A stretch of 64,000 bases of DNA from Candidatus Poribacteria bacterium (lineage in GTDB: Bacteria > Poribacteria > WGA-4E > WGA-3G), in assembly GCA_965215265.1 (NCBI GenBank), contig OZ244048.1:2976001-3040000 (forward strand), given 5' to 3'. Below the pieces are notes generated by a model that saw only the letters and a list, made by a program, of their open reading frames with translations, did no database searches and was not told the origin of the DNA. The first letter of the stretch is position 1; every line of letters begins with the position of its first letter. The position numbers and the translations under genes were made by a program. Of this stretch, positions 4,520 to 55,093 are shown one piece after another.

Positions 4520-4529
4520 TTTTTTCGCG

Positions 4530-4958
4530 TTTTTGTATATTTCAGCCCGATAACGCCTGATGTATTGTCAATGACTGTGTAAATCTCGTGGCAGGCTAGG
4601 TATTCTTTGTCTCTCCTGAAAGGAGAGACAAGATAACCTTATACCTGCCATCTATAGATCGGAGATATCTTAGGCATAGCGTAGCATAAAGCGGCTTTTT
4701 CGTCTACTAGAGTACCTTCAACGCTTATGCTTTTGATCGCTCGTGTGTAAATCTCGTCGGAGATATCTTAGGTATAGCATAAGGAACCTCCGACGAGATT
4801 TGTAAAGGCGTTAACATTGCAGCAGCCTTTATGGAACTACAGTAGACAAAAAACGAGATTTGTATAGGCCTTATCAAAGCAGCAACCTTTATAGTACTGC
4901 AGTAGACGAAAACACAGGTCATTGCGACATAAGTGATGACGGTACGGAGATATCCAAG
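4530..4958. repeat. Mosaic (BIME-like) cluster of 60-bp elements in both orientations plus an inserted palindrome
   Basis: Minus copies ~4530-4589 and ~4697-4757; plus copies 4793-4852 and 4853-4912; partial copy 4913-4958; palindrome 4588-4651. Confidence 0.9.
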
Positions 4959-6089: not shown

Positions 6090-6137
6090 TTTTTCTAAAG
6101 TGGGACATTCAACCTATTGCATATCTTGACATTCAAA

Positions 6138-6338
6138 TTTTTGTATATTTCAGCCCGATAACGCCTGATGTATTGTCAATGACTGTGTAAATCTCGTGGC
6201 AGGCTAGGTATTCTTTGTCTCTCCTGAAAGGAGAGACAAGATAACCTTATACCTGCCATCTATAGATCGGAGATATCTTAGGCATAGCGTAGCGGAGAGC
6301 GGCTCCCAGCGGGTGATGACGGTACGGAGATATCCAAG
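6138..6338. repeat. Direct copy of 4530-4685 (156 bp) plus a partial element at 6313-6338
   Basis: 6138-6293 reads identical to 4530-4685; GTGATGACGGTACGGAGATATCCAAG is shared with 4933-4958. Confidence 0.92.
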
Positions 6339-7102
6339 AATAAGTTATGAAAATTTTGGCTCGTGCTTTTGCCGATTGCTTCTGCTGAGGTGCCGCGGAG
6401 CTCCGCTATTTTTTGTGCGACAGCGGCGACATACGCAGGTTCGTTGCGTTTGCCGCGTCGAAATTGCGGTGCCAGCCACGGACAATCGGTTTCAATGAGC
6501 AGACGTTCTTCGGGGACTTCGCGTGCCACTCCATGAACTGCAGCAGCATTCCGGTATGTAACGATTCCACCAATGCCGATGTACATTTCACAAACAGGAC
6601 TGAGTTCCAGGCTCCTACGCATCAGCTGTACGTCACCTGTAAAGCAGTGCAACACGCCGCGCACCTTTTCCTGCTGCGCCTCTAAAATCGGTAGGATATC
6701 CATATATGCATCACGGTTGTGGATGACTATTGGAAGGGCAGTCTCCACAGCGAGCGCTAACTGTTGTTCAAATACCTTTTTTTGGAGTAGCGGTGAACAG
6801 CGGTTGCGGTAGTAATCCAACCCCATTTCACCGAGGGCGAGGACTTTCGGATGAGCTGAGAGTTCACGAAACGTTTTTAAGACATCTGACGTGAAATATT
6901 CTGCATCATGCGGGTGCATCCCGACAGTGGCGTAGACGTTCTTGTGTTTTTCAGCGACATCTATAGCGCCGAGGCTAGTTTCAAGATCAAAGCCAATAAC
7001 GAGGATTGTGTCAATTCCGGCATCTCGTGCGCGACGTATCACCGCACCCCGGTCGGCATCAAACTGGGCGAGTTGGATGTGTGCATGCGAATCAATAAAC
7101 AT
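6278..7102 (-). CDS. tatD: TatD family DNase
   Basis: 'IDSHAH', 'GMHPH', 'GEMGLDY', 'IHNRDA', 'GVLHCFTG', 'ETDCPWLAP'. The last ~20 aa are repeat-derived. Confidence 0.92.
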   Translation of the reverse strand: MFIDSHAHIQLAQFDADRGAVIRRARDAGIDTILVIGFDLETSLGAIDVAEKHKNVYATVGMHPHDAEYFTSDVLKTFRELSAHPKVLALGEMGLDYYRNRCSPLLQKKVFEQQLALAVETALPIVIHNRDAYMDILPILEAQQEKVRGVLHCFTGDVQLMRRSLELSPVCEMYIGIGGIVTYRNAAAVHGVAREVPEERLLIETDCPWLAPQFRRGKRNEPAYVAAVAQKIAELRGTSAEAIGKSTSQNFHNLFLDISVPSSPAGSRSPLRYA

Positions 7103-10933: not shown

Positions 10934-10945
10934 ATCGTTGCCTCT

Positions 10946-12472
10946 CTATCTTTCGTGCAGGGCATCGGGCAGTTGGCAAAATGTAATGCCCAAGTTTGTG
11001 AGTTCGCGTTGCCCGATGTAAGTGCCCGCTCCATACACAACCGCCCGCCTATTCTTATCACGGCTGGCATCGTGGATTTGGCGCGCCCGCTCTAAGGTGA
11101 GCATAGCCGCATCGCTCTGCAGGTAGTCGAGAGCCGGTTTGTAGAGGAGATAGTAGTCCGTTGTGTCGTCGCTATGAAAAAGTCCGTTCTCATTTTTCGC
11201 GGAGAGTGCATCAGTTGGGACGGCAACGCCGGAGGCGGTATAGAGGAGGTTTGCGGCGAGTGTTGCATACGGGGGTAAGGCTTCTCCTGTGAGCATTGTG
11301 TCGGCTGTGATGGGTTCGCCGAGGGTGCAGTAGGTAAAGGAGCCGCCTAATCCGTCCCGGAGTGGTGCGTTGCGTGCTGTGGGGATGCCGTTGATGACGC
11401 GTCTGACACGTTCAGCGGTGATGGTATCGGCATAATCTTCGCATTCAATGAGGATGAACTTTCGGTTGCCGTTATCTGCTTTGTTGAGGGCGAGGACAGC
11501 ATGGGCGGTGGTACCGCTGCCGGCGAAGGAGTCTAAGATGATGGCAGACTGATCATCCAGCATCCCTATCATTCTCTGAATGAGATTGACATTCTTTTCG
11601 CCATTAGGAAAATTGAAACGAGTATCGTATTCTTGAATATCTGTCCAATTAGAATCCAACATTTTGCTATTACTAGCATCAATCAAGTATTGAGGTTTCC
11701 CAGTACGCGGATTGGCACGTAGTCTCCCGTTGGCGATTAGCTTCGCCGCCCTTTCCTTAGAATACATCCAATGTCTTCCCTTTGGAGGTTGCATACCAAA
11801 AAGTTCATACGCTGTTGAAGTTTCACCAGGAGCATCAAAGGCATGCCAGCGTTTTCCTTTTTCCTGAAATGTTGTTGGTGGCTTAATTAACCCCGATGAG
11901 GATTTAGCATAAAATAAAACGAAATTGTATCCACGATTTAAGGCGCGGATGTGCTCGCCTGCTCTGATACTTTTCTTCACCCTGGCGACAGCGAAAATGT
12001 TGCGAAAGTTCTCCTCCCCAAAAATCTCGTCCATCAACATCCGCAGGTGGTGTTGCTCATTATCATCAATAGAAATAAAAATGATACCATCTTCGGCAAG
12101 CAGTTCTTTGAGCAGATGCAATCTCGGCCACATCATACACAACCATTTATCGTGCCGTTCTAAGTCTTCACCGTCAACAGGCTGGTTAGCCATAAGCCAG
12201 CCTTTCATCAGCGGACTGTTGACGTTGTCGTTGTAAACCCACCCTTCATTGCCGGTGTTGTAGGGCGGATCGATATAGATGCACTTAATACGGTTGGCAT
12301 ACCGGGGCAGCAATGCTTTGAGTGCATGCAGGTTATCGCCGTGGATGATGAGATTATCATCTGCTTGGGCAGGGTTACAGGAACGGTTAGTGTCCTGTTC
12401 CAGTGGGCGGTATGGGACGGTGAGGTGGTGTGCATAGATATGCTGTTTGCCTTTGAACTCAAGTGTGGGCAT
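10946..12472 (-). CDS. mod: Type III Mod adenine methyltransferase, copy A (TRD ~11543-12017)
   Basis: 'IYIDPPYNTG', 'ISIDDNE', 'LDSFAGSGTT'. Alternative start at 12508. Confidence 0.92.
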   Translation of the reverse strand: MPTLEFKGKQHIYAHHLTVPYRPLEQDTNRSCNPAQADDNLIIHGDNLHALKALLPRYANRIKCIYIDPPYNTGNEGWVYNDNVNSPLMKGWLMANQPVDGEDLERHDKWLCMMWPRLHLLKELLAEDGIIFISIDDNEQHHLRMLMDEIFGEENFRNIFAVARVKKSIRAGEHIRALNRGYNFVLFYAKSSSGLIKPPTTFQEKGKRWHAFDAPGETSTAYELFGMQPPKGRHWMYSKERAAKLIANGRLRANPRTGKPQYLIDASNSKMLDSNWTDIQEYDTRFNFPNGEKNVNLIQRMIGMLDDQSAIILDSFAGSGTTAHAVLALNKADNGNRKFILIECEDYADTITAERVRRVINGIPTARNAPLRDGLGGSFTYCTLGEPITADTMLTGEALPPYATLAANLLYTASGVAVPTDALSAKNENGLFHSDDTTDYYLLYKPALDYLQSDAAMLTLERARQIHDASRDKNRRAVVYGAGTYIGQRELTNLGITFCQLPDALHER

Positions 12473-12519
12473 TGGACAACTCCAGTCAGTATGATTTGAA
12501 AAAGTCATTTACCTCAATT

Positions 12520-12548
12520 AGCATATCACATATCACGTGGAAAGTCAA
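12520..12548 (-). promoter_or_regulatory. sigma70-like promoter between the two mod copies
   Basis: TTGACT-17 nt-TATGCT on the minus strand. Confidence 0.6.
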
Positions 12549-12588
12549 GAGAATATTCAATCTTTTAGGAGGATATTTGGTTTGAGTT

Positions 12589-14250
12589 TTACCTTTCGTG
12601 CAGGGCATCCGGCAGTTGGCAAAATGTAATGCCCAAGTTTGTGAGTTCGCGTTGCCCGATGTAAGTGCCCGCTCCATACACAACCGCCCGCCTATTCTTA
12701 TCACGGCTGGCATCGTGGATTTGGCGCGCCCGCTCTAAGTTAAGCATAGCCGCATCGCTCTGCAGGTAGTCGAGGACCGGTTTGTAGAGGAGATAGTAAT
12801 CCGTTGTGTCGTCGCTATGAAAAAGCCCGTTCTCATTTTTCGCGGCGAGTGCATCAGTTGGGACGGCAACACCGGATGCAGTATAGAGGAGGTTTGCGGC
12901 GAGTGTTGCATACGGGGGTAAGGCTTCTCCTGTGAGCATTGTGTCGGCTGTGATGGGTTCGCCGAGGGTGCAGTAGGTAAAGGAGCCGCCTAATCCGTCC
13001 CGGAGCGGTGCGTCGCGTGCTGTGGGGATGCCGTTGATGACGCGTCTGACACGTTCAGCGGTGATGGTTTGGGCATAATCTTCGCATTCAATGAGGATGA
13101 ACTTTCGGTTGCCGCTGTCTGCTTTGTTGAGGGCGAGGACAGCATGGGCGGTGGTACCGCTGCCGGCGAAGGAGTCTAAGATGATATCATCTTCGCCGCA
13201 AACCATGTTAATCAGATATTTTATTAACGAAGTTGGCTTGGGATAGTCAAATTTATCAGTACCAATAATGGAAACCAATTCTTTATTTGCTTCTTCATTA
13301 GTACCTACTTGACATTCCTTATGCGTGATGAGGTTCGACGGGATCTTCACCCGTTGGTTCTGTTTACGCTCATAACGGATAGAAAACTGATGGCTCTTTA
13401 TGAGGAACTGCGTTTCGGCTGCAATCTCGCGCGTGACAGTCTCTTGCACCCATTTAAATCGGCCTTCCACCTTTAGATTATTCAGGAGCTTCCCATTTTT
13501 CACCCGAACTTCCTTAAGGAGCCTCACTCTTCCATAATTTCCGGGGTTATAGGCTCCATCTCTAAGATTGACTGTGCCAAATGCCTCCTTTGGGAATTCG
13601 AGGGAGCGAACGGTATTTGACTCATTGAGTAACGGCATGTCTCCCCCTGCCGTTTGCCCACCGAAGAGCTGGAGTTTTTTATCGGCCGATTTCCTGTAAC
13701 AAATCAACGGTTCCAGTTTTCGGCGGATAGTCTTTGACAAACTAGGTGGGGTTGCCGTTCGCATCCAAGCGAACTGTGCAGCGAAGTTGGTTTTGCCAAA
13801 AATCTCATCCATCAACATCCGCAGGTGGTGTTGCTCATTATCATCAATCGAAATAAAAATGATACCATCTTCGGCAAGCAGTTCTTTTAACAGATGCAAT
13901 CTCGGCCACATCATACACAACCATTTATCGTGCCGTTCTAAGTCTTCACCGTCAACAGGCTGGTTAGCCAGAAGCCAGCCTTTCATCAGCGGACTGTTGA
14001 CGTTGTCGTTGTAAACCCACCCTTCATTGCCGGTGTTGTAGGGCGGATCGATATAGATGCACTTAATACGGTTGGCATACCGGGGCAGCAATGCTTTGAG
14101 TGCATGCAGGTTATCGCCGTGGATGATGAGATTATCATCTGCTTGGGCAGGGTTACAGGAACGGTTAGTGTCCTGTTCCAGTGGGCGGTATGGGACGGTG
14201 AGGTGGTGTGCATAGATATGCTGTTTGCCTTTGAACTCAAGTGTGGGCAT
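12589..14250 (-). CDS. mod: Type III Mod adenine methyltransferase, copy B (TRD ~13186-13795)
   Basis: N- and C-terminal regions near-identical to copy A at DNA level; unrelated central domain ending 'FDYPKPTSLI'. Confidence 0.92.
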   Translation of the reverse strand: MPTLEFKGKQHIYAHHLTVPYRPLEQDTNRSCNPAQADDNLIIHGDNLHALKALLPRYANRIKCIYIDPPYNTGNEGWVYNDNVNSPLMKGWLLANQPVDGEDLERHDKWLCMMWPRLHLLKELLAEDGIIFISIDDNEQHHLRMLMDEIFGKTNFAAQFAWMRTATPPSLSKTIRRKLEPLICYRKSADKKLQLFGGQTAGGDMPLLNESNTVRSLEFPKEAFGTVNLRDGAYNPGNYGRVRLLKEVRVKNGKLLNNLKVEGRFKWVQETVTREIAAETQFLIKSHQFSIRYERKQNQRVKIPSNLITHKECQVGTNEEANKELVSIIGTDKFDYPKPTSLIKYLINMVCGEDDIILDSFAGSGTTAHAVLALNKADSGNRKFILIECEDYAQTITAERVRRVINGIPTARDAPLRDGLGGSFTYCTLGEPITADTMLTGEALPPYATLAANLLYTASGVAVPTDALAAKNENGLFHSDDTTDYYLLYKPVLDYLQSDAAMLNLERARQIHDASRDKNRRAVVYGAGTYIGQRELTNLGITFCQLPDALHER

Positions 14251-14350
14251 TGGACAACTCCAATTCAGAAGTGCGGTTGATCCAAAATTTGCTGTGAAAA
14301 TATCCAAATATGTTGAATTTCAGCGGAGCAGCGTGAGCAACCTTTTTAAG

Positions 14351-14380
14351 AGTTTAGCATAAATTAGTAGCGGATGTCAA
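14351..14380 (-). promoter_or_regulatory. sigma70-like promoter for mod B
   Basis: TTGACA-18 nt-TAAACT with a TG extension. Confidence 0.55.
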
Positions 14381-14546
14381 GCAATTTCTCTACTTGTCTC
14401 TTGACATTCATGCTACATTACCCGGTAGGAGTTGGCTTTTGCCTATAAGTTTCGGTTTGTCGCCTTGAGATTCGGCGTGCCCCCACAGGTCTTCCGGGCG
14501 ATGTGATGCAGGGGAAAGAGAAGTTTTGAAGAGTGGTTAAGTTGTG

Positions 14547-15329
14547 TTATTTCCCCTGTATGGTACTAATCTCATCTTCAGAGATTTTGTGGACGCTTTT
14601 GGGGTTGAAGGTCTGGGTTGTGTCTATGCGGAGTGCTACCTCTATTCTGCCCCCGGTGAGTACAAAGAATTGGATTAAGAACCCGCCGCCTTGCATGGCT
14701 TCGACCTGATATTCATCCGGGTCAAGTCCGTCCATCCAGGTTGGGAGTGCTGCGTCAAAGCGGGTGTCAGTGATGACTTCGTAGGGCAGTGCAATGATGA
14801 GGGTGCCGGGTGCATCGCCGATGGCATTTCCGATAATGTGCCGTTTATCTACCATGAAGGGTACAACGCGGCTGGCGTATTCAAAATCGTCGGCTGTGGT
14901 TCTTTCTGGTGGGACAATTCCCCAGGTCAAGTGGTGGATAAAAGGGTTTCCGTATCCCTGCGCGAGCATATGTTGGCGTGCTATTTTGTCAACCGGATGT
15001 ACGACAGCGACATAGTCAAACCAACCATCGTATCGAGCCGGATTGTCTGATGGCAGCTGCGCGGAGACGTTGATGTAGTCACATCCATCAACTGGGGAGG
15101 GATAACAACGTGCATCCCATCCGTTAATATAACCGAGTTGTTTCAGTCCGTCTGCGACGAGGTGTGGTGGATCACAGAAAATTGCAGCGTGATCCATGTT
15201 AGGGCGGAGTTGGATGCCGGCCTGGGTAACGTGCGTTGCCACCTCGGTCGCCTCTGCGAAACGTTGTTCTGCGTTTTCAATTGTTAGGTAGTTATTGAAA
15301 TTGGTGGGCAATATAATTGTGCGTTGCAT
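14547..15329 (-). CDS. Hypothetical protein, probably VOC/HPPD-like metalloprotein
   Basis: GGAGG SD before ATG 15329. 'DHAA', 'IHHLTW' and 'LIQFF..GRIEVALR' resemble HPPD-type metal-ligand motifs. Confidence 0.6.
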   Translation of the reverse strand: MQRTIILPTNFNNYLTIENAEQRFAEATEVATHVTQAGIQLRPNMDHAAIFCDPPHLVADGLKQLGYINGWDARCYPSPVDGCDYINVSAQLPSDNPARYDGWFDYVAVVHPVDKIARQHMLAQGYGNPFIHHLTWGIVPPERTTADDFEYASRVVPFMVDKRHIIGNAIGDAPGTLIIALPYEVITDTRFDAALPTWMDGLDPDEYQVEAMQGGGFLIQFFVLTGGRIEVALRIDTTQTFNPKSVHKISEDEISTIQGK

Positions 15330-19915: not shown

Positions 19916-20068
19916 GACTCCTTTGCAATGTGAATGTGTACGTGAATGATAGCAGAGAACAGCGTTAATATCAAGGAAGATTCTATTTTTTTTTCGGAAT
20001 AAGTCGTTTTGAACTTACAAAAAGTTGTTCAAAAGTGCTATAGGAAATATAACGGTTTTTAGCGGGTT

Positions 20069-24000: not shown

Positions 24001-24240
24001 GTGAGAAAGCAGCGACTAAGGTAGATGCTGCTTGAGTTAATAAGAGGGTTAACGGACGTGAAGTTAGGGGGGGGTCAATCGTCTTAACAGGGACTTAAAA
24101 CACACGACAGCACGGCATACGCACGCGTTCGCGCCAAAACTACAACCCCGCAACACGGGGCCAGGCACTCTGCTCTTCTGGGACACGGACTCTTGGTGTT
24201 TCATCTTTTTGATTTTTCCCTGTCTGATTCAAGTGAATGC

Positions 24241-24459
24241 ATTTTATTAGAAAACAACGTTTTTTGGCAAACTTTTTTTTGCATCACTCAAAAGTTGTTT
24301 TGCATTATCGCATAACGAACGTTTGTTTGTCAACTTTTTTTTCCGAAATAAAAAATCAACGAAAACATTCTATCAGAAAATAACACTTTTTGGCAAACTT
24401 TTTTTTTGCATCACTCAAAGCGTATTTTATATTATAACACAATCTCTTTTTTTTGTCAA
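24241..24459 (-). promoter_or_regulatory. Four tandem sigma70-like promoters
   Basis: TTGACA-17-TATAAT (24431-24459), TTGCCA-18-TAGAAT (24367-24396), TTGACA-18-GATAAT (24304-24333), TTGCCA-18-TAAAAT (24241-24270). Confidence 0.75.
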
Positions 24460-30635: not shown

Positions 30636-30883
30636 GACTGTTTTCTCCCAATCCACACTGATTTTATGTGCCGCTGGCGGGGCCCAGAATAGAGAAAAAA
30701 CGAACCTTTTCTTAAAAGAATTGACTAATGAAACAAAACTGATTTTTAGTTTGGTTATATCCTCCTTCTTGATTGTTAATTAAGAACGGAAATTGTATAA
30801 ATCCCTTTAGCGATATGGGCATAGGCGCTCGCATAATGAGCAGGCTCTATCGCTTCGGGAAAGAAAAAAAAAGGAGAAAAGAA

Positions 30884-31387
30884 ATGAAGCAGAAATGGTT
30901 CGTACTCAGCGCAATCGGTGCAATTGCACTAATCAGTGTTTTTGTTTTTGATCATGTAACGTCAGCACAGCGGCCGGAACGTTCTGGCGGCGGGGAACGT
31001 GCTAATCGCGGCGAAGGGAGACGTGGCGGCATGGGCATGATGGGAACGATGAACCCTGTCTCCATTGTTGAGAACTCTTGGATTGACTTAACGTTTGGCG
31101 TGAAGGTGAACGACGAAACGCTCGTGAAAGCCCGGCCTATCTATCAGGAAATCCGCGACGAAGTAGAAATGGAGATGCAAACGCTACGGGCATCCAGAGA
31201 TCGACAACAGATGATGAACGAGATGAAAGCACTTGTCGGGAAAGTGGGTAAAGAATTCCAAGCATCTCTTAAGGAGATCTTGAGCGAAGCAGAAATGAAG
31301 CAGCTCAATGAATTGACAAAGAAACGCATAGCTGCGAATGAAGAACGTGGGAATAGGTTCCGCGGCGGCGGCAATCGAGGGCGGTAA
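30884..31387 (+). CDS. Secreted hypothetical helical protein (Gly/Arg-rich termini, Spy/CpxP-like flavour)
   Basis: AAGGAG SD, signal peptide MKQKWFVLSAIG..., downstream terminator. Confidence 0.75.
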   Translation: MKQKWFVLSAIGAIALISVFVFDHVTSAQRPERSGGGERANRGEGRRGGMGMMGTMNPVSIVENSWIDLTFGVKVNDETLVKARPIYQEIRDEVEMEMQTLRASRDRQQMMNEMKALVGKVGKEFQASLKEILSEAEMKQLNELTKKRIAANEERGNRFRGGGNRGR

Positions 31388-44604: not shown

Positions 44605-45774
44605 ATGGACAGCCAAGTCTGGTTAACGGCAGAACGTTCCGCCCTAAAACGAGAAGGCATATTGCGGCAGCTGCGGACAGTCCAGAATGCACCTAGGGGC
44701 AGAATTAATCTTGATGGCCGCGAGGTTGTTTTGCTCGCTTCAAACAACTATCTCGGCTTGAGCACCCATCCAAAAGTTGTGGCCGCAGCGGTAGAGGCGA
44801 CACAAGCATTCGGCACCGGTGCGAGCGGCTCACGGTTGATTTCAGGAAACAGCAGTCTCTACGCTGACTTGGAAGCAACGCTCGCAATCTTAAAGCGGAC
44901 AGAAGCGGCGCTCGTCTTCAGTTCCGGTTACACAGCAAACACCGGCACTATCCCTATCCTGGCTGGGGAAGGTGACCTCATCCTGAGCGACGCGTTGAAC
45001 CATGCCAGCATTATAGACGGGTGCCGACTCAGCCCTGCCATCAAAAAGATCTATCGGCACTGCGATATGGAACATCTCCAGACGTTACTCGCTGAGTCTG
45101 CCTGCTTTAAGCGTCGACTCATCGTAACCGATGGCGTTTTCAGTATGGACGGCGACATAGCCCCGCTCCCTGACATCTGCGACCTTGCGCAACAATACGG
45201 CGCGATTGTGCTGGTTGATGATGCGCACGGTTTTGGCGTTTTAGGAAAAGATGGCGGCGGTACTGTTGAACATTTTGGCCTGCAACACCACGGTATTATC
45301 CAGATGGGGACACTCAGCAAAGCAATCGGCGGATTGGGCGGTTATATCGCCGGAAGCCAGGCTCTAATTGAGTTGCTTATCAACCGCGCGCGAAGCTTTA
45401 TCTTTACTACTGGGCTCCCGCCGGCGACATTAGCCGGTGCAACCGCGGCACTACAGATCATCCGTTCTTCACCAGAATTGCGGCAGCGTCTATTCTCTCA
45501 TGCGAAACGTCTCAAAACCGCGTTGACAGGCTTAGGGCTGAAGCTGCTCCCCAGCCAAACCCAGATTCTGCCGGTTATACTCGGAACCCCGCAACGTGCA
45601 TCTCATTTTGCGCAAGCCTTGCTTTCAGAGGGCATCTTCGCCCCGGCTATTCGACCGCCATCTGTCCCGGCAGGTACAAGCCGCTTACGCGTTACGGTGA
45701 TGGCAACGCACACCTCAGCCGATATACAGCGGGCGATTGATGGGTTTGCGCATGTGTTAAAATCACCTGATTAG
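44605..45774 (+). CDS. bioF: 8-amino-7-oxononanoate synthase
   Basis: 'SNNYLGL', 'GASGSRL', 'NHASIIDG', 'DDAHG', 'GTLSKA', 'AIRPPSVP'. Confidence 0.9.
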   Translation: MDSQVWLTAERSALKREGILRQLRTVQNAPRGRINLDGREVVLLASNNYLGLSTHPKVVAAAVEATQAFGTGASGSRLISGNSSLYADLEATLAILKRTEAALVFSSGYTANTGTIPILAGEGDLILSDALNHASIIDGCRLSPAIKKIYRHCDMEHLQTLLAESACFKRRLIVTDGVFSMDGDIAPLPDICDLAQQYGAIVLVDDAHGFGVLGKDGGGTVEHFGLQHHGIIQMGTLSKAIGGLGGYIAGSQALIELLINRARSFIFTTGLPPATLAGATAALQIIRSSPELRQRLFSHAKRLKTALTGLGLKLLPSQTQILPVILGTPQRASHFAQALLSEGIFAPAIRPPSVPAGTSRLRVTVMATHTSADIQRAIDGFAHVLKSPD

Positions 45775-45898
45775 AGCTCGTTGAAAAAGAGATGAAATAG
45801 AATTTTGTGACATGACGATCGGCTCTCTAGCCTCATTAGGTAAAAAACACCGAAAATTACCGGCGTTAAATTCTTAATCTTCAGTCTAATTTTTTTTC

Positions 45899-45927
45899 TT
45901 GACACTGTTTCCTAAATTTGTTATCCT
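45899..45927 (+). promoter_or_regulatory. sigma70-like promoter followed by a leader hairpin (~45957-45998)
   Basis: TTGACA-17-TATCCT with TG; ACAGTGCAGCAGCG...CGCTATTGCATCACTGT. Confidence 0.6.
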
Positions 45928-46046
45928 TTTAAGTAAGGACTGAACCGTTGATTAAATACAGTGCAGCAGCGTTAGGAGGAGCCGCTATTGCATCACTGTT
46001 TAACGAAAACCTCCAAAAAACTTTGTCCTAGGAAAGATTGAGAGAG

Positions 46047-46883
46047 ATGAAAAATCAGAAGAGTGACGCGAACTACACGATGGGACGCAGTCAAGAAGAG
46101 ACAGAACGATTAATAGAGCAAGCGCAACTGTATGGAAAGTTGACACAGCGGTTTCTCGTGGAAGCCGGTATTACTAACGGCATGAAGGTACTGGATATCG
46201 GCAGCGGTGCCGGTGATGTTGCCCTGATCTTAGCCGAACTTGTCGGCACAGAGGGCGAGGTGCTCGGCGTGGATGTAAATGCCGAGATTCTTGAGACGGC
46301 ACGCACACGCACCGAGGAAGCCGGCTACACCAACGTCACATTTATTGCAGGCGACGCACGAACGCTTGAATTGGATACCGATTTTGATGCAGTCGTCGGT
46401 AGATTGGTGCTGATGTACATGGTGGACCCCACAGACGCGCTAAAACGTTTGGCAACCCGCCTGCGCCCCGAGGGGATCGTCGCCTTTCAAGAGACAGATT
46501 TTACACCTTATCAAGCATTCATACATCCGGACACGCCCCTCATAAATCAATTGATTGAGTGGGGTGCCAACGTATTTCAACGTTCCGGGGCACACACCAG
46601 TATGGGGATGGACCTCTACAAGGCTTTCGTTGATGCCGGTTTGCCCGAACCAACACTCCATTTTGCAGCACCAGGCGGTAACCCTGAAACGGGTGCAGCT
46701 TATCATTATATCGCACGCAGCTTTCAAAGTTTTTTGCCGCTTCTAGAAAAATTCGAAATCGCCACGGCAGCGGAGGTCGATGTGGAAACCCTCGCCGAGC
46801 GGCTCCAGCAGGAAGTCGTTAACGCAAAACGCCCGTTCTTCTTGCCGCCATGGATATCCGCTTATGCAAAAAAAATCCAGTAA
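46047..46883 (+). CDS. Class I SAM-dependent methyltransferase
   Basis: 'VLDIGSGAGDV', 'GVDVN', 'FDAVVGRLVL', 'LRPEG'. Confidence 0.88.
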   Translation: MKNQKSDANYTMGRSQEETERLIEQAQLYGKLTQRFLVEAGITNGMKVLDIGSGAGDVALILAELVGTEGEVLGVDVNAEILETARTRTEEAGYTNVTFIAGDARTLELDTDFDAVVGRLVLMYMVDPTDALKRLATRLRPEGIVAFQETDFTPYQAFIHPDTPLINQLIEWGANVFQRSGAHTSMGMDLYKAFVDAGLPEPTLHFAAPGGNPETGAAYHYIARSFQSFLPLLEKFEIATAAEVDVETLAERLQQEVVNAKRPFFLPPWISAYAKKIQ

Positions 46884-46933
46884 CGCGGCTACAGATTAAC
46901 GGTAATCCACAACTACTTGGAAAGAACATACCT

Positions 46934-48651
46934 ATGCCTACACTCGACTTCAAAGGTAAGCAGTTCATCTATTCGCATCACCTCACCGTGCCTTTTCGCA
47001 CGTTGGAGGTGGATGCGGATAAATCATTAATGTCTATTACCCCCCCCCTTCTTCTAATTTGTTAAGTAGTAATCTTATCATTCACGGCGACAACCTGTAC
47101 GCCCTCAAGGCACTCCTGCCGCGTTATGCGGGCAAGATTAAGTGCATCTATATAGATCCGCCATACAACACCGGCAAAGAAAACTGGGTCTATAATGACA
47201 ACGTTAACAACCCACTCATGCAGGCGTGGCTTGAGAAAAATAGCCCCGTTGATGGTGAAGATTTAGAGCGACACGATAAATGGTTGTGTATGATGTGGCC
47301 CCGGCTGCATTTACTGCGTGAATTGCTCTCCGAAGATGGCGCGATTTTTATCTCTATTGATGATAACGAACAACACCGTTTGCGAATGCTGCTGGATGGA
47401 ATTTTTGGCGGAGACAATTTCATTACTAACATTGCGGTAGTTTCAAACTTAGCAGGCAGTAGCGATCAATTTGGATTTGCGGGTGCTCATGAACACTGCT
47501 TGGTATATGCCCAAAATCGTAGTGAGGTGAGTTTAGGGCGTTTTTCCGTTGATGAAAATGCTCTTGAAAAATGGGAACAAGATGAAAAAGGGTATTACAA
47601 ACCGGAACTTTTACAAAGAGGTAGTTTAACCTATTCAGAGTCGATGCATTATCCTATTTTCGTAGGTCCGCAGGATAATATTGAAGTTACAGAAGACGAT
47701 AGCGAGCCTGTAGAGAACGGTCCTTTTATAACTGTATACCCAATTGTGCGTAATGGAAACGCGAATGCAACATGGAGATGGAGCAAGAAAAGAATATTGG
47801 ATAATCCTACTGATGTATTTGCTAAACGTCGTGACGACGGGAGCATCGCAATATATTCAAAGCAACGGCCCCAACTCGGAGACTTGCCTACTCAGAAACC
47901 TAAATCTGTATTCTACAAACCTGAGTACGGTAGTCGTGCTGGCGGACAAACGTTATCAGATATATTTTCTGAATCTACCCAGAAGTTTCCCTACCCAAAA
48001 GCGATTTCTTTGATAACAGACTTGTTACGAATTGGTGCACCGAACTCTGGGGACATTATTCTCGACTCCTTCGCCGGTAGTGGTACCACCGCGCACGCTG
48101 TGCTCGCCCTCAACAAAGAAGATGGTGGCAACCGGAAGTTTATCCTCGTTGAATGCGAAGATTATGCCGACACCATCACGGCTGAACGGGTGAGACGGGT
48201 GATGAACGGCGTTGAGGCAGCTAAAGACGAGACGTTGCGTCAAGGCCTCGGCGGTTCCTTTACTTACTGCACCCTCGGTGAGGCGATTGATACAGAGCGG
48301 ATGCTCACGGGAGATAATTTGCCCTCTTATGAGGCCTTGGCGAATTATGTCGCTTACGTCGCCACCGGCAACTCGCTTCCAACTGTTGTGCATCGGAAGG
48401 ATTTCTTTTTCGGAGAAACTGAGAATCTCCTCTTCTATCTGATTTACGAACCGAGTCTTAAATTTTTAGAGAGCAACCGGTCTGCACTAAACGAGAAACG
48501 TGCAGTGCAGATAGCCAAGCGCTGCGAGACAACGGGTAAAAGGGCGTACGTCTATGCGGCACAGAAGTTTATGAGTCAGAAAGAGTTGACACCGCTGGAT
48601 ATTACGTTTTGTCAGCTGCCGTATAGCATTCATCAACTTCCTGAAGGGTAA
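46934..48651 (+). CDS. mod: Type III Mod, copy C, frameshifted at a C9 tract (47040-47048); TRD ~47371-48051
   Basis: The N-terminus MPTLDFKGKQ... homologous to mods A/B is in a different frame from the DPPY/FAGSGTT body; one extra C restores ...SITPPPSSNLLSSNLIIHGDN. Confidence 0.9.
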
Positions 48652-48654
48652 AAA

Positions 48655-48784
48655 CAGTGAAAGATGCGGCGGATTATCCGTGCGTTGCATGGGAAAAATT
48701 ACGAGAAGAAGCCGTGTTACCGGGCGTTCCGGACAAAAAAGGAGCAGATAAGATTCCAGAGTACATTTTGCACGAAGCCGCCTC
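48655..48784 (+). pseudogene. Remnant of the res 5' region between the mod copies
   Basis: Near-identical to res 50730-50859 (GCGGCGGATTATCCG...GAAGCCGCCTC). Confidence 0.88.
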
Positions 48785-48822
48785 TTAACGGTAATCCACA
48801 ACTACTTGGAAAGAACATACCT

Positions 48823-50579
48823 ATGCCTACACTCGATTTCAAGGGCAAGCAGTTCATCTATTCGCATCACCTCACCGTGCCTTTTCGCACGTTGGAGGTG
48901 GATGCGGATAAATCATTAATGTCTATTACCCCCCCCCTTCTTCTAATTTGTTAAGTAGTAATCTCATCATTCACGGCGACAACCTGCACGCCCTCAAGGC
49001 ACTCCTGCCGCGTTATGCGGGCAGGATTAAGTGCATCTATATAGATCCGCCATACAACACCGGCAAAGAAAACTGGGTCTACAATGACAACGTTAACAAC
49101 CCACTCATGCAGGCGTGGCTTGAGAAAAATAGTCCCGTTGATGGTGAAGACTTAGAACGACACGATAAATGGTTGTGTATGATGTGGCCCCGGCTGCATT
49201 TACTGCGTGAATTGCTCTCCGAAGATGGCGCGATTTTTATCTCTATTGATGATAATGAAGTGCATCGGCTCCGCGCTATCATGGATGAAATTTTTAATGC
49301 AAAAGAGAGCTTCCCTGATGGCAACTTTGTTGGACAATTTGTCTGGGCGGCCGGTAGAAAAAATAACTCCCGGCTTTTTTCCAACTCGCATGGTTACATT
49401 CTATGTTATCTTAAAAACCATGAGTCCCTAAATGAGCAGCGAATTACTTGGCGTGTGCGAAAGCAGGGGCTTGAGGATATTTATAAAAAACATCGACAAC
49501 TCGAACGGGAATATGGCGAAGACTTTCCACGGATTGAAGCAGAATTGGCAGCATGGTTTAAGGGGCTCCCCGATGTACATCCTGCCAAGCGGCATAAAGG
49601 CTACTGCTATGTGGATAGCCACGGCCCTTATAGCTCCTCTGATACTTCTGCACCAGGTGGTAACGGAGAGAGGTATTCGGTGCACCATCCGTTAACAGGT
49701 AAACCGTGTGCGATTCCGTCAGGCGGTTGGCGTTATACTCAACGAGAAATGAATGAATTGCTCGCAGATAACCGAATTCTGTTTGGTTCTGACGAAAGAT
49801 ATGTCCCGAGATGCAAACTTTACCTAAAGGAGACTGAATACGAAGTCCCTTATAGCGTTTTTTACAAAGATGGCCAGGGTGCGACGAAACGATTGCACTC
49901 ACTCCTTGGTCAACCGTTCCCTTTTCCTAAAGATGAAGACATTCTCCAGTTGCTGTTTGAAGCTGCCACGGGTCCTAATGACATCATTCTCGACTCCTTC
50001 GCCGGTAGTGGTACCACCGCGCACGCTGTGCTCGCCCTCAACAAAGAAGATGGTGGCAACCGGAAGTTTATCCTCGTTGAATGCGAAGATTATGCCGACA
50101 CCATCACGGCTGAACGGGTGAGACGGGTGATGAACGGCGTTGAGGCAGCTAAGAACGAGACGTTGCGTCAAGGCCTCGGCGGTTCCTTTAGCTACTGCAC
50201 CCTCGGTGAGGCGATTGATACGGAGCGGATGCTCACGGGGAATAATTTACCTTCTTATGAGGCCTTGGCGAATTATGTCGCTTACGTCGCCACCGGCAAC
50301 TCGCTTCCAACTGTTGTGCATCGGAAGGATTTCTTTTTCGGGGAGACTGAGAATCTCCTCTTCTATCTGATTTACAAACCGAGTCTTAAATTTTTAGAGA
50401 GCAACCAGTCTGCACTAAACGAGAAACGTGCAGCACAGATAGCCAAGCACTGCGAGACAACGGGTAAAAGGGCGTACGTCTACGCAGCACAGAAGTTTAT
50501 GAGTCAGAAAGAGCTGACACCGCTGGATATTACGTTTTGTCAGCTGCCGTATAGCATTCATCAACTTCCTGAAAGGTAA
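48823..50579 (+). CDS. mod: Type III Mod, copy D, frameshifted at a C9 tract (48929-48937); TRD ~49260-49979
   Basis: Flanks near-identical to copy C, unrelated central domain, same frameshift. Confidence 0.9.
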
Positions 50580-50581
50580 AA

Positions 50582-53227
50582 ATGGAACTGAAAGATTACC
50601 AACAAGAGGCGTTGGATACGTTAGAGACATATTTAGCGGCATTGAAGGATGCGCGGAAAGCGGCCGATGAACTCGCTGCTGTTAACATCGCAGAATTTCC
50701 AGAAGTTGTGAGAGAGTCGATGGCAGTGGCAGTGAAAGAGGCGGCGGATTATCCGCGCGTTGCATGGGAAAAATTACGAGAAGAAGCCGTGTTACCGGGC
50801 GTTCCGGACAAAAAAGGAGCAGATAAGATTCCGGAGTACATTGCGCGCGAAGCCGCCTCCGGTGAACCGATTCCGCACGTCTGTCTGAAAGTGCCGACCG
50901 GTGGGGGGAAGACGTTGTTGGGTGTAGAGGCGGTGCGTCGCTTGAAACTCGGCACCGGGTTTGTGCTATGGCTCGTACCGACGAAAGCCATCTACACACA
51001 AACGTGGGCGGCTTTTCGGAATCGTGAGCATCCGTATCGGCAAATTCTGGAGCTTGCGTCAGGAGGCAGGGTCAAACTTCTCCAAAAGGATGATAGATTC
51101 ACTAAGCAAGACGTTGAGGATTATCTGTGTGTGATGCTCCTGATGCTGCCTGCGGCGAACCGGCAGCGGAATAAGGAATTCCTCAAAATGTTCCGCGATA
51201 GCAGCGGCTATGCGTCGTTTTTTCCGATTGAAGACGCTGTTTGGGAACATCAAGGGTTATTGGAGACGCATCCGGACCTTGAGAGAACGGTGGAGGGTGA
51301 GCCGGGGCAGATCGGTGGGGTGCTCGCCGCGAATCCGGTGGACAGGCAGATTAAGCAGAGCCTATTCAATGTGCTGAAGCTGCTGCGTCCGACGGTGGTT
51401 TTAGATGAGGCACATAAAGCTTACGGGAGCAAGCAGGCAAAGAATAACCAGGAATTCGTGGCGGTGGTGAATCGTCTCAATCCGCGCTTTGTGCTGGAGC
51501 TTTCTGCCACTCCGCAGCTCGGCATCAGCAACATTCTCGTCAATATCTCTGGTGTTGCGCTAAAAGACGAAGAGATGATTAAGCTGCCGATTCACCTGCG
51601 TAATTTCGAGAATTCGGATTGGAAGTATACACTCGCCCAGGCGAAGGCAGAGCGGGATAGGCTTGAGGAGAAGGCGGAGCAGCTGCAAGCAGTGGAAAAC
51701 CGCTATATCCGTCCTATCGCCGTGATCCGCGTAGATCGCACCGGCAAAAATCAACGGGACGGCATAAGGGTGCATGCCGAGGATGTGCGTGACGAGCTGA
51801 TCCACGGATTGGGCGTAGATGCCAACTATATTAAGGTGAAATCCTCAGAGCAGGATGAGCTGGCCGGAATTGACTTGCTGAGTCCTTTCTGTCCGGTGCG
51901 TTATATTATTACCAAGGATGCCTTAAAGGAGGGATGGGATTGCCCGTTCGCTGCTCTACTGGTTCTGCTTGATAACACAACCGCGTCGACAGCGATGACG
52001 CAGCTCGTTGGCCGGGTGATGCGGCAACCGCATGCACGGGCGACGCTATTTCCTGAATTGGATAGTTGCTACATCTACTGCTTCAATCAGAAGGTCGGGG
52101 CGGCAGTGAAAAATGTCAAAAAGGGGTTAGAGGCAGAGGGGTTAACAGGACTTGCCGAATTTGTTGATGATCCAGAGGCGGAAGGTGTGCGGCGCAAGGT
52201 GCAACGCAGACCTGAATATCGCAGCTTGGATATTTTTCTGCCGCAGGTACTACATAAACAGGGGAACGGTTGGCGAGCACTTGATTATGAACGCGATATC
52301 CGCAGTGCGATTAACTGGGCGCTTCTCGATGCTGTCAAACCGGTCCGACTCGGGGCTCAAGCGGACAGCCGAGAGATTCGTGCGACTATCCATCTTCAAG
52401 ACGAAGCCGTCATCGAGAAGCCGGCTTCAGAAAATCTTGATATGGAATTAGAGCTCGATTTTTTCGTTCGTCGCCTGGGCGATATGATTCCGAATCCGTG
52501 GCAAGCCGCCCGTATTGTCAAGGCCACTCTGCAGCAATACCAGCAACAGGGCATCGACGAGAAAACGTTGTTCATGAATCGGCTCTATCTCTCTGAAGTC
52601 CTGAAGAATAAACTCCGGGAACGGATTGAAAGTTTAGCCGAGGCTGTTTTCCGAGAGAAGCTCCGCAGTGACAAGGTTCGGTTTAATCTGCAAACGGATG
52701 CCGCGCTAAACTACGAATTAGAAAAGACGATTGAGGTGATTGTCTCTAAAGAAGAAAAACCGCTAACCCGTTCACACGGGACTGCGTTGCAATTAAACCT
52801 GTTCAGCCCAGTCTTTGAGGGTGAGTTCAATAATTTAGAGCAAGATTTTGCGCTCTATTTAGACGAAAAAGGGGCGATTCAGTGGTGGCATCGCATCGCT
52901 GCTAAGCAGGGCTATTTTTTGCAAGGGTGGCGTCGGGAACGTGTGTATCCGGATTTCGTAGCGTGTGTGCAAGGTGAGAAAGATGGAACGCAGCGGCTGC
53001 TGCTGTTAGAGACGAAAGGTTTGCAACTCAAAGGCAACGCGGATACGACGTATAAACAGGAGCTGCTCAAGACGTTGGAGAGTGCCTATCGGACTGCCAC
53101 GGTGCATGGCACTATGGATGTCGTCCATCCTACTCACAAAACGATATCGTTCCGGATGCTGTTTGAGGATTCGTGGTGTGAGAAGTTGAATGAGACGATC
53201 GATGAGAGTTATGCGGCTGCGGAGTAG
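50582..53227 (+). CDS. res: Type III Res subunit
   Basis: 'KVPTGGGKT', 'LDEAH', 'LSATP', 'EGWDCP', 'YPDFV...ETKG'; paralog of 8366-10933. Confidence 0.92.
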   Translation: MELKDYQQEALDTLETYLAALKDARKAADELAAVNIAEFPEVVRESMAVAVKEAADYPRVAWEKLREEAVLPGVPDKKGADKIPEYIAREAASGEPIPHVCLKVPTGGGKTLLGVEAVRRLKLGTGFVLWLVPTKAIYTQTWAAFRNREHPYRQILELASGGRVKLLQKDDRFTKQDVEDYLCVMLLMLPAANRQRNKEFLKMFRDSSGYASFFPIEDAVWEHQGLLETHPDLERTVEGEPGQIGGVLAANPVDRQIKQSLFNVLKLLRPTVVLDEAHKAYGSKQAKNNQEFVAVVNRLNPRFVLELSATPQLGISNILVNISGVALKDEEMIKLPIHLRNFENSDWKYTLAQAKAERDRLEEKAEQLQAVENRYIRPIAVIRVDRTGKNQRDGIRVHAEDVRDELIHGLGVDANYIKVKSSEQDELAGIDLLSPFCPVRYIITKDALKEGWDCPFAALLVLLDNTTASTAMTQLVGRVMRQPHARATLFPELDSCYIYCFNQKVGAAVKNVKKGLEAEGLTGLAEFVDDPEAEGVRRKVQRRPEYRSLDIFLPQVLHKQGNGWRALDYERDIRSAINWALLDAVKPVRLGAQADSREIRATIHLQDEAVIEKPASENLDMELELDFFVRRLGDMIPNPWQAARIVKATLQQYQQQGIDEKTLFMNRLYLSEVLKNKLRERIESLAEAVFREKLRSDKVRFNLQTDAALNYELEKTIEVIVSKEEKPLTRSHGTALQLNLFSPVFEGEFNNLEQDFALYLDEKGAIQWWHRIAAKQGYFLQGWRRERVYPDFVACVQGEKDGTQRLLLLETKGLQLKGNADTTYKQELLKTLESAYRTATVHGTMDVVHPTHKTISFRMLFEDSWCEKLNETIDESYAAAE

Positions 53228-53407
53228 CGGTGCTGCTTGGCAGTCGAAAACAGGATGATGATTAATTTTAATTCCTTAGTCGCCCACATGCCGGGCGGAG
53301 GGGCTACCAAACTCCACTAACCCCGTTTTATCACTAGGCAAACTGCTTTCAGGGCAGAATTTCTATCTTACATTTAGATGTATTGAAATAATCAGGTGTA
53401 ATAGGCT

Positions 53408-54157
53408 TTAACAGATAACTGTGGGCATCTCGTCATAAGTTCGACCGTCTAATTCACGGCCTGTTTTGGATTTACGTGTGCCGCCCCACTGTTTGAAGAA
53501 AAATGGTACTTTTGCGTTCACACACCCATCGCGGATATCGAGTACCCACTCTTTTTTCATCTGCCGTGCCCCCGGTCCCGACTCACCTCCGACGATTACC
53601 CAATCGATACAGTCCAAATTTAAATTCGGCAAGGGACCAATAAGCGGTTCCAATGATAAGAATTTAATCTGTGCTTGACTCTTTCGGAGACAGTCGATTC
53701 GGTGGACGACGTGTTCATCCTCGACGCTCACTCCCATCCAGACGTTGTGCGGCCAGGGCAGTACTGAATTACATTCCAGCAATCGTTCGGCGCGTTTTGT
53801 CAAAACTTGAAATTGATGCCAATTCGCTTTTCTCATCACATCAAAAACGGCTTGAATAAATGAGAGTTCAACCTTCTGGTGAAACAGGTCACTCATGGAA
53901 TTGACGAAAATGCGGCGTGGCTTTTTCCATCTTAGGGGTACATCAAGCAATTCTGGTAAAACGCGGACCTGATTGTTCCACCGGGGTCCAGTTTTCGTGT
54001 TATGTGCCAAACCTTCATAAGCCATTCCTTCTCCGGAAAACCTCGCTGCGATGCGTTCAGCGTAACAGAACCGGCATCCTTCTGACACTCGTGTACAACC
54101 GCGCACTGGGTTCCAAGTTGATTCGGTCCACTCAATTTTTGAGGCTTGAGATGCCAT
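53408..54157 (-). CDS. DUF5131 (phage Gp37/Gp68-like) three-Cys-motif protein
   Basis: 'IEWT..TWNPVRGCTRVSEGCRFCYA', 'FVNSMSDLFH', 'WVIVGGESG', 'FFFKQWGG'. Confidence 0.9.
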   Translation of the reverse strand: MASQASKIEWTESTWNPVRGCTRVSEGCRFCYAERIAARFSGEGMAYEGLAHNTKTGPRWNNQVRVLPELLDVPLRWKKPRRIFVNSMSDLFHQKVELSFIQAVFDVMRKANWHQFQVLTKRAERLLECNSVLPWPHNVWMGVSVEDEHVVHRIDCLRKSQAQIKFLSLEPLIGPLPNLNLDCIDWVIVGGESGPGARQMKKEWVLDIRDGCVNAKVPFFFKQWGGTRKSKTGRELDGRTYDEMPTVIC

Positions 54158-54169
54158 CTGTTTTACCTC

Positions 54170-55093
54170 TTACTTTGAAAATGTTGGTTGTGGCGGGTTT
54201 TGCATTCCGCTTAGAATGTGCTGGGCAATTTTAACCGCTGTTGGTGCCCCTCTCGGGTTTCCGGCGGCAAAGCAGAGCAAATACAGAGGGACATTTTTTG
54301 AATTACGTAAAGAAAGAGGATTATCAGCTACGCCTGCAAAAATTCCTTGTAATTGCTTCATGAAATATTGCTCAACTTCCGCAAAAATATCGTCCGTTTT
54401 TTGCCATCTATCTTTTTCGTCAAACATTGAAATTTGTTTAGCAAGTTGATAAAACGTCTGAAACCAATAGTCATCGCCAAAAACACTATTCAACTTATAC
54501 CGCCGGGCATCTCGAATCTCGCCATCATTTTTCAACAACCGATTTACAGTACCCAGAGGAAAAAGCATCCATAAGTCAATCGCTTGAGTCTTAGCGATTG
54601 ATTTAATTGTTTCCCATTCAACCTGCATGCCGTAAGGATCAAGGAAAACTAAGGCTCGGTGTTTCCTCCAGTTTTTCGTGCATAATTTTCTTAAGAATGT
54701 GTTCGCGTCCTCCTGCTCACACGTAATAGAATCTTCTTGCCATTCTTTATTGCGTAAAGATTCTTCTCTAAGTTCGACTAATTCTGCAAACCGCTTTGGA
54801 TCTTTTTCAATAAAAACGTATTTTTGAAAAGGAGGTTCTACTTCTAACGCGATTTGTGCTGAACCCTCCAACCAACCACGCGTATCCTGGGAAGTCAGTT
54901 CAGGGAACATGAGTTTATTTGGATTATCGTCATGTGGTAACTCACGGTACCCTGTACCCGCAAAAGCATCTATGTATGCGAAACGAAACTTCTGTTTTTT
55001 CATTATGGTTGTATAGGCTTGCAAGTATTTTTTTATACATTCCAATTTCTGATCTGTCCAAGGCCCGCCAAATTGCTGTCTGCTATTATTCAT
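54170..55093 (-). CDS. tcmP: Three-Cys-motif partner protein (methyltransferase-like)
   Basis: 'FGGPWT..KL', 'YIDAFAGTG', 'FLDPYG', 'LYLLCFA'; directly upstream of DUF5131. Confidence 0.85.
   Translation of the reverse strand: MNNSRQQFGGPWTDQKLECIKKYLQAYTTIMKKQKFRFAYIDAFAGTGYRELPHDDNPNKLMFPELTSQDTRGWLEGSAQIALEVEPPFQKYVFIEKDPKRFAELVELREESLRNKEWQEDSITCEQEDANTFLRKLCTKNWRKHRALVFLDPYGMQVEWETIKSIAKTQAIDLWMLFPLGTVNRLLKNDGEIRDARRYKLNSVFGDDYWFQTFYQLAKQISMFDEKDRWQKTDDIFAEVEQYFMKQLQGIFAGVADNPLSLRNSKNVPLYLLCFAAGNPRGAPTAVKIAQHILSGMQNPPQPTFSK

Follow-up and report, generated by a model that had tools for sequence, protein, structure and literature searches.

Two tandem mod genes, each with a poly-C tract that probably acts as a slippage switch, share one res in a Type III restriction-modification locus of a Poribacteria bacterium

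The 64,000-nucleotide (nt) stretch of DNA analysed here (the window; positions 2,976,001 to 3,040,000 of contig OZ244048.1, assembly GCA_965215265.1, Candidatus Poribacteria bacterium) contains a Type III restriction-modification locus in which two tandem mod genes, modC (46934-48651) and modD (48823-50579), are followed by a single res. Each mod carries a run of nine cytosines (C9) between its conserved N-terminus and its catalytic body, and in both copies the two parts lie in different frames. We consider it likely that the genes encode alternative Mods sharing one Res, each switched by slipped-strand changes in the length of its own poly-C tract. Phase variation of this type appears well supported by comparison with relatives, in which repeats of several kinds recur in the same linker and full-length and broken forms occur side by side.

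The predicted proteins identify the locus as a Type III system. Both Mod bodies match Pfam N6_N4_Mtase (modC, 4e-30; modD, 2.8e-29), and their best PADLOC model is MTase_III (5e-150 and 2.8e-163, respectively). All four Mods encoded in the window, two of them in a second locus described below (locus 1), carry IDPPYNTG near the N-terminus and DSFAGSGTT behind a variable centre. This order of DPPY before FxGxG with a variable region between them is the feature of beta-class amino-methyltransferases, and the same Mod motifs are named in a preprint on the Mycoplasma enzyme Mbo45V (bioRxiv 10.64898/2026.05.01.722158). P0002, a full-length relative 77% identical to the modC body, matches the solved Mods 6k0w, 4zcf (EcoP15I) and 7dsu (Mbo45V, E 1e-41) at 1e-41 to 2e-46, in alignments that leave N-terminal residues 1 to about 27 uncovered. 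Res aligns over residues 1-869 to positions 1-878 of the 883-position PADLOC profile REase_III PDLC03653 (E 1.8e-233), matches Pfam ResIII and DEAD, and shares 46% identity with the locus-1 Res from end to end. It also carries PTGGGKT, LDEAHK and a C-terminal PDF...ETKG, which by eye we read as helicase and nuclease motifs. A comparison of Res with solved structures gave no sequence matches, and NCBIfam gave weak partial matches only. A preliminary description of this DNA, made from its letters alone, had named the genes as mod and res, and the Pfam and PADLOC matches bear this out.

Table 1. Coordinates of the features of the modC-modD-res locus in the window
Feature	Position	Strand	Remarks
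Leader of 38 nt common to both mods; the duplicated unit begins here	46896..46933	+	direct repeat D1
modC 5' segment	46934..47065	+	conserved N-terminus, ATG frame, 43 codons and TAA at 47063-47065
Poly-C tract 1 (C9), putative slippage switch of modC	47040..47048	+	
modC body, -1 frame	47023..48651 (stop 48649-48651)	+	0 stops inside; Type III beta-class methyltransferase
modC variable target-recognition part	about 47371-48051	+	
res 5' remnant (Res residues 51-93) between the mods	48655..48785	+	tblastn 91% over 43 amino acids
modD 5' segment	48823..48954	+	same N-terminus as modC, 43 codons and TAA at 48952-48954
Poly-C tract 2 (C9), putative slippage switch of modD	48929..48937	+	
modD body, -1 frame	48912..50579	+	0 stops inside; Type III methyltransferase
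modD central region, differs from modC	about 49260-49979	+	
res	50582..53227	+	intact; ATG 3 nt past the modD stop; helicase and nuclease

The second copy repeats the arrangement of the first 1,889 nt downstream, and in each the full-length frame is reached by a -1 shift. When the tract was set to 5-15 C by script, modC gave open reading frames (ORFs) of 571, 572 and 573 amino acids (aa) at C7, C10 and C13, and modD gave 584, 585 and 586 aa, whereas every remaining length gave an ORF of only 39-45 aa in modC and modD alike. The preliminary description had reported that both tracts are C9 and out of frame, that the proteins end at 43 aa and that C10 or C7 joins the frames, all of which is correct. 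In the window both wrong frames close soon past the tract, at 4 and 2 codons. Mononucleotide tracts of at least 9 have been taken as phase-variable in mods, with 9-nt rates given as 1.8-13.5e-3 (Atack et al. 2018, PMC5909438), and C9 in both copies reaches this length. Within the window, however, the statistical signal is weak: the pattern C8 has 5 overlapping matches against a shuffle mean of 1.13, with 5 of 100 shuffles reaching 5, and the two tracts are not independent because the copies are duplicates.

The 43-aa piece ahead of the stop aligns with the N-termini of both locus-1 Mods and of full-length homologues, and across 68 aligned full-length relatives its residues 1-31 include 7 invariant and 8 nearly invariant columns. 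By this alignment the piece is the conserved N-terminus of the family and not a chance ORF. The linker with the tract sits between this conserved 35-residue N-terminus and the catalytic body, as the preliminary description had it, and the locus-1 mods have at the same place a 24-nt linker without a repeat. Translation might instead restart at TTG 47059 (48948 in modD) and give a Mod without its first 35 residues, perhaps a working one. This TTG overlaps the stop as TTGTTAA and is where the database ORF for modC begins (P0001, 530 aa; modD is called at 490 aa), yet the part that would be lost is among the best conserved in the 68 sequences, relatives inspected by eye have no conserved restart codon past their tracts, and TTG is in general a weak start codon. 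We regard split expression of this kind as highly improbable.

The most direct support for a slippage switch comes from the linkers of related genes. A genome scan gave 80 loci with modC relatives, which together with the window make 81 sources and 89 genes. Most of the 80 loci are metagenome-assembled genomes (MAGs) of lineages that are sponge-named or sponge-typical, among them Poribacteria, Dehalococcoidia, Spongiisociaceae, Nitrospirales and Latescibacterota. Using tblastn to place the N-terminus and the body in each locus, we took the intervening DNA as the linker. A repeat occupies this same linker in 15 of the 89 genes, from 10 of the 81 sources, as (GA)10 in L001, (AC)13 in L026, C16 in both L003 and L045, C28 in L033, C32 in L049, G10 in L020, G24 in L055, C11, C8, C11, C10 and C11 in the five genes of L043, and C9 in each of the two window genes. 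Linkers of the other 74 genes are repeat-free and 24-75 nt long, mostly 24-36 nt, and all are multiples of three save that of the pseudogene L061. With fixed thresholds, 14 of 32 repeat tracts fall in linkers, which make up 0.27% of the DNA (3,328 of 1,231,038 nt; binomial P about 5e-28); counted by locus, the figure is 10 of 28 (P about 3e-19). From the conserved parts of 88 genes a tree was built, L061 being omitted owing to the stops in its body. On this tree the repeat trait changes 9 times, with at least 5 changes forced by well-supported branches. The carriers belong to Chloroflexota, Actinomycetota, Nitrospirota and Pseudomonadota, in addition to the window, whose pair is the sole carrier within a 20-gene Poribacteria clade.

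The repeat-bearing genes otherwise look intact. All 15 have bodies of 497-539 aa with no stops, whereas L061, which is out of frame without a repeat, has 2 stops in its body. Past the tract the body frame is open for 515-553 codons in the 15 genes, while in 14 of them both wrong frames shut within at most 27 codons. A downstream res-like ORF of 837-890 aa with a G.GKT motif is kept in 6 of the 9 related repeat-bearing loci.

Several further observations concern the linker or repeats elsewhere in these loci. L033 and L038, from one Dehalococcoidia genome (OZ219748.1) and about 24 kb apart, are sister mods with full support in the tree; L033 has C28 and L038 has no repeat. Six relatives of modD (P0243, P0249, P0250, P0253, P0254 and P0401) have a linker with 1-3 in-frame units of about 22 residues, SLDE[NH]VRGTGPRAT..., in proteins of 618-685 aa, so the linker tolerates minisatellite-like expansion as well. 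Repeats also occur in other genes: L026 has G13 (2774-2786) at the 5' end of a minus-strand N6_N4_Mtase ORF (1251-2795), and L049 has (AG)18 (14340-14375) inside another N6_N4_Mtase ORF (12151-14661). Outside methylase genes, C10 (15286-15295) lies in a CobQ-like amidotransferase ORF of L001, C15 (11148-11162) in an open frame of L037 whose later part matches an epimerase, G9 (3347-3355) at the start of an RCC1/GSDH ORF of L002, and another C/G tract of the 9-15 nt class in L062 (6537-6545).

The variety of these linker repeats also bears on whether the frame could be restored at the RNA level, with the DNA staying at C9 and polymerase slippage or a -1 ribosomal shift on C_CCC_CCC giving a low, constant supply of full-length Mod. 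The shift needed is indeed -1 and the heptamer qualifies formally as slippery; documented bacterial cases include slippage on runs of 9 A or T (PMC5009743), and the long tracts of some relatives (C16-C32, G24) would blur a state encoded in DNA. The relatives, however, include some with (GA)n or (AC)n in this linker, neither of which is a slippery heptamer, and relatives differ at the level of DNA or ORF. In the window we found no stable structure past the tract (minimum free energy z-score -0.92; a weak first hairpin starts 11 nt on) and no Rfam family, and what PMC5009743 documents of transcriptional slippage concerns A and T runs. Recoding thus appears quite unlikely as an account of the two mods.

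Length variation between on and off forms is seen directly among relatives. In L043 (Dehalococcoidia MAG record OZ243977.1, 1-14876), five tandem mods precede one res, with identities of 85-98% in their frames and 25-40% in their centres. Tract length varies from C8 to C11 in the same flanks; two of the genes are complete ORFs (590 and 582 aa), and the other three are out of frame. Copies 2 and 3 of this array have a DUF6338 ORF (6157-6741) and an N-terminus fragment (6060-6104) between them, and copies 2 and 5 each have an ATG, 29 nt upstream, from which the body frame is open over the N-terminal region (ORFs 4250-5983 and 10515-12242).

Full-length and broken forms also coexist within protein clusters at 90% identity or more. 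P0370, the closest full-length relative, is 77% identical to the modD body and 585 aa long, the exact length predicted for modD at C10. Its junction reads KSL-NIYT-PPP-VSENLLDD-NLIIH, with the same spacing as in the window, that is KSL, four codons, a proline run and an xSxNLL-like stretch, which is also the spacing of the junction peptide predicted in the preliminary description. P0370, from the cluster of P0261 (77% identical to modD), contrasts with P0369 (490 aa) and P0371 (46 aa), whose contigs are equal in length; P0371 has the N-terminus of P0370, a one-base shift directly past the proline run and a stop 7 codons on. Among the 15 members listed of the 20 in the P0248 cluster, 5 are full length and 10 are cut at the N-terminus; the full-length ones are 587 or 588 aa, the difference being one glycine in a glycine run. 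The P0243 cluster (12 members) comprises 6 full-length proteins, 5 cut ones and 1 fragment, and in the P0030 and P0048 clusters full-length members with proline runs stand alongside cut ones such as P0390. Together with the several repeat kinds at one linker and the tandem copies of L043, these clusters support the DNA-level switching by tract length that had been proposed from the window alone.

The same data weigh on the possibility that both tracts are truly C10 and were undercalled alike in the assembly, so that the mods would be intact and on, yet slippage-prone. Homopolymer length is generally known as a classic weak point of long-read consensus, and the two tracts agree in length as well as in their sequence context. 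The identical flanks in L043, however, carry C8, C10 and C11, a mixture that no systematic miscall would produce, and intact and broken forms occur side by side over many assemblies. P0360, the other member of the window ModD cluster (92% identical), is likewise called at 490 aa from an internal ATG and not at 585 aa; its record, a second one, is from the same species or one very close to it (MurB 99% identical), although the two records are possibly not independent. An assembly artefact is in our view unlikely. The differences between P0360 and the window ModD (P0241) cluster centrally, at about residues 155-250 in the 490-aa numbering, which is the pattern to be expected if specificity varies between alleles of one species.

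Comparison of the two window genes with each other suggests how the pair arose. Their body proteins are 97% identical over the first 105 residues and 96% identical over the last 190, whereas the centres are 27% identical; near-identical flanks with a divergent centre are what is usually seen when Type III mod alleles differ in their target-recognition domains. In the DNA the shared blocks appear as direct repeats, 98% and 97% identical. Repeat D1 (46896-47195 and 48785-49084, 98% identical) begins with the shared leader, and repeat D3 (48655-48784 and 50730-50859, 95% identical) corresponds to the res remnant between the mods, which by its sequence is a scar of tandem duplication. Given the shared leader and this remnant, the pair arose by tandem duplication of a unit reaching from the mod leader into res, followed by an internal deletion and by replacement of the central region. 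No res remnants were found between the tandem mods of L043, L030 or locus 1 of the window. Switching by recombination was also considered and rejected, as the region 45500-53500 contains no meaningful inverted repeats.

The mods might alternatively be dead genes, in which a frameshift fixed in one copy was spread to the other by duplication or gene conversion while the locus decayed around an incidental tract. Both copies have the same break in an identical stretch, and the family does contain a true pseudogene (L061). On the other side, no second lesion is seen in either body (527 and 539 aa) or in Res (881 aa), and the wrong frames close at once past the tract while the body frame stays open. 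The conserved parts of modC and modD differ at 19 synonymous and 10 non-synonymous codons (P about 5e-6 against a 3:1 expectation), of which 3 synonymous and no non-synonymous ones lie in the N-terminal frame. Finally, repeats recur at exactly the same site in at least five lineages, and close relatives include full-length forms. Taken with these observations, decay of the locus seems improbable.

Several points nevertheless weigh against a slippage switch and temper our preference for it. Since about 118 nt around the tract are identical in both copies, the shared C9 may stem from duplication or gene conversion rather than from two slippage events. The synonymous excess could have been imported with a foreign centre and could predate the break. 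Of the 15 repeat-bearing genes, 13 are out of frame as assembled, where chance would give 10 (P = 0.079); such an excess would also suit dead genes, although long tracts are hard to size. A scan for promoters and terminators, which may not suit this phylum, gave no sigma-70-like promoter directly ahead of either mod and no intrinsic terminator between them; the sole good promoter-like site nearby (45899-45927) lies ahead of the preceding gene, which encodes an unrelated class-I methyltransferase. The break itself is confined to 47023-47049, and it is by comparison that it is placed within the tract. Read backwards through the tract, the body frame (NVYY-PPP) resembles P0370 (NIYT-PPP) in BLAST, and P0333 and P0355 read xxNY-PPP in frame. 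The corresponding candidate, a loss of one base upstream of a native C9 tract, is disfavoured because P0370 and the window share the ATG-frame spacing of KSL, four codons and the proline run. Even with an upstream loss, a change from C9 to C10 would be an easy way back.

If the tracts are slippage switches, mispairing of slipped strands at replication would alter their length at a high rate, for instance from C9 to C10 or C8. Lengths of C7, C10 and C13 would give full-length Mod (on), and at any other length translation would stop 2-4 codons past the tract (off); both tracts are C9 in the assembly, so both genes would be off there. Type III Res is described as acting only within a Mod2Res1 complex (PMC4490356, PMC4005696, PMC3874151). 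Without Mod there would accordingly be no methylation and, as Res could not find DNA, no restriction, whereas with one or both mods on, one or both motifs would be methylated and restricted. Because the tracts can slip separately, four states would be possible (none, C, D or both), differing in methylation pattern and in the foreign DNA restricted; we infer such independent switching, which L043 makes plausible. With N- and C-terminal frames this close to identity (96-97%), both Mods would remain able to work with the one Res, and mixed ModC-ModD dimers with properties of their own might form when both are on. In a habitat rich in phages and DNA, such switching would probably serve to hedge bets among defence, uptake of DNA and self-damage. 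Regulation of further genes by the switching is possible, and we do not class the locus as a phasevarion.

The rest of the window adds a second Type III locus and other defence-related genes. Locus 1 (8366-14307, minus strand) has the same layout without a repeat, with mods at 12589-14307 and 10946-12508, res at 8366-10933 and a 24-nt linker; the frames of its mods are 97-99% identical and the centres 26% identical, so that the window holds four Mods of one family and two Res. A YhgA-like putative transposase gene (PF04754; 21360-22448, minus strand) lies between the two restriction loci. A gene for a class-I S-adenosylmethionine methyltransferase (46038-46883, plus strand), which gives a partial match to PADLOC mad2, ends 50 nt before modC and may be co-transcribed with the mods. 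Directly past res on the minus strand (53408-55093) is a gene pair matching the PADLOC candidate defence system PDC-M41, with the three-Cys-motif partner TcmP as component A (54170-55093) and a DUF5131 protein, which we take to correspond to COG4422, as component B (53408-54157). COG4422 (phage gp37) is listed among the genes enriched in sponge symbionts (Slaby et al., PMC5649159). Other homopolymers in the window are G8 on the plus strand at 24067-24074, in a region without a family match, T9 at 19986-19994 and 24399-24407, and A9 at 30864-30872 inside the ORF 30773-31387. The gene content further includes PSCyt/DUF1553, DUF1501 and many TPR proteins, in keeping with a bacterium of the Poribacteria kind.

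The design of the locus is not new, and the preliminary description overrated its novelty. Type III mods switched by simple sequence repeats (SSRs) are common: an SSR is given for 662 of 3,805 Type III mods in REBASE, homopolymer tracts and environmental species included, with up to four phase-variable mod switches per genome (PMC5909438). Loci with several repeat-bearing mods beside a single res have been described in Mycoplasma bovis PG45 (Mbo45ORF167P; Mbo45V), in which a single res accompanies three mods that all carry an (AG)n repeat (bioRxiv 10.64898/2026.05.01.722158), and in M. pulmonis, which has a similar cluster (Dybvig et al., as cited in the same preprint). The window locus belongs to this multi-mod, single-res kind, having two mods with different centres and repeats of their own. 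In M. bovis, too, the repeat length in the genome ends translation prematurely, and according to the preprint the repeat stretch is dispensable, the enzyme being active after its deletion, and the complex is Mod2Res1. Mbo45V (PDB 7dsu) is moreover a sequence relative of the window Mod family. The Mycoplasma repeat, (AG)11-24, is reported to code for Arg-Glu, whereas the window poly-C codes for proline, and the Mycoplasma Mods are given as about 70% identical overall, in contrast to 96-97% for the frames and 27% for the centre in the window. The window locus also differs in having a res remnant between its mods and in its host, which has a Poribacteria-type genome of roughly 4.8 Mb and is not a small-genome animal pathogen.

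Other known systems share some of these features. In the modH, modJ and modL genes of Helicobacter pylori and modU of Campylobacter upsaliensis, a mononucleotide tract within the gene likewise switches the frame, the central region varies among alleles and several switches occur per genome, as described in PMC5909438; these mods stand at separate loci with their own res or none, whereas the window pair shares one. A regulon effect (a phasevarion) has been shown for several pathogens and is possible for the window locus. In pathogens res is described as often inactive (PMC3874151), whereas the window res is intact. EcoP15I and EcoP1 have the same mod-res order, a beta-class Mod with a central target-recognition region and a helicase-nuclease Res, but a single mod and no repeat, and the window Res is too distant to match any solved structure by sequence. 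Type I systems with multiple hsdS genes reach the same outcome, in which one machine is given alternative specificity modules chosen at random (PMC7394358). They swap these genes by recombination, whereas each window subunit has its own putative frameshift switch and no inverted repeats were found at the locus. In the literature we found no report of phase-variable restriction-modification in Poribacteria or other sponge-associated lineages, of repeated origin of repeats at one linker of one Mod family across phyla, or of arrays of up to five such mods.

Work on repeat-switched Type III methylases has mostly dealt with them as virulence-linked regulators of small-genome pathogens. What is probably the same device occurs in the window in a bacterium of Poribacteria type that has a large genome and an intact restriction subunit, and the same linker is a hot spot for repeats among relatives of several phyla, most of whose records are MAGs associated with sponges. 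Gene callers split such genes, as with the 530- and 490-aa calls for modC and modD, so methylase catalogues from metagenomes will miscount them. Restriction-modification genes are reported to be enriched in sponge symbionts (PMC5649159), and switching of the on/off and either/or type would make single strains heterogeneous as well. More tentatively, one horizontally shared Mod scaffold, present in at least five phyla of sponge-associated bacteria, may have gained a linker tract at least five times and multiplied into arrays of two to five Mods, forming a combinatorial 2^n-state switch that serves as population-level immunity. If so, clonal symbionts would present phages and other incoming DNA with a mosaic of specificities, unlike the antigen control of pathogens.

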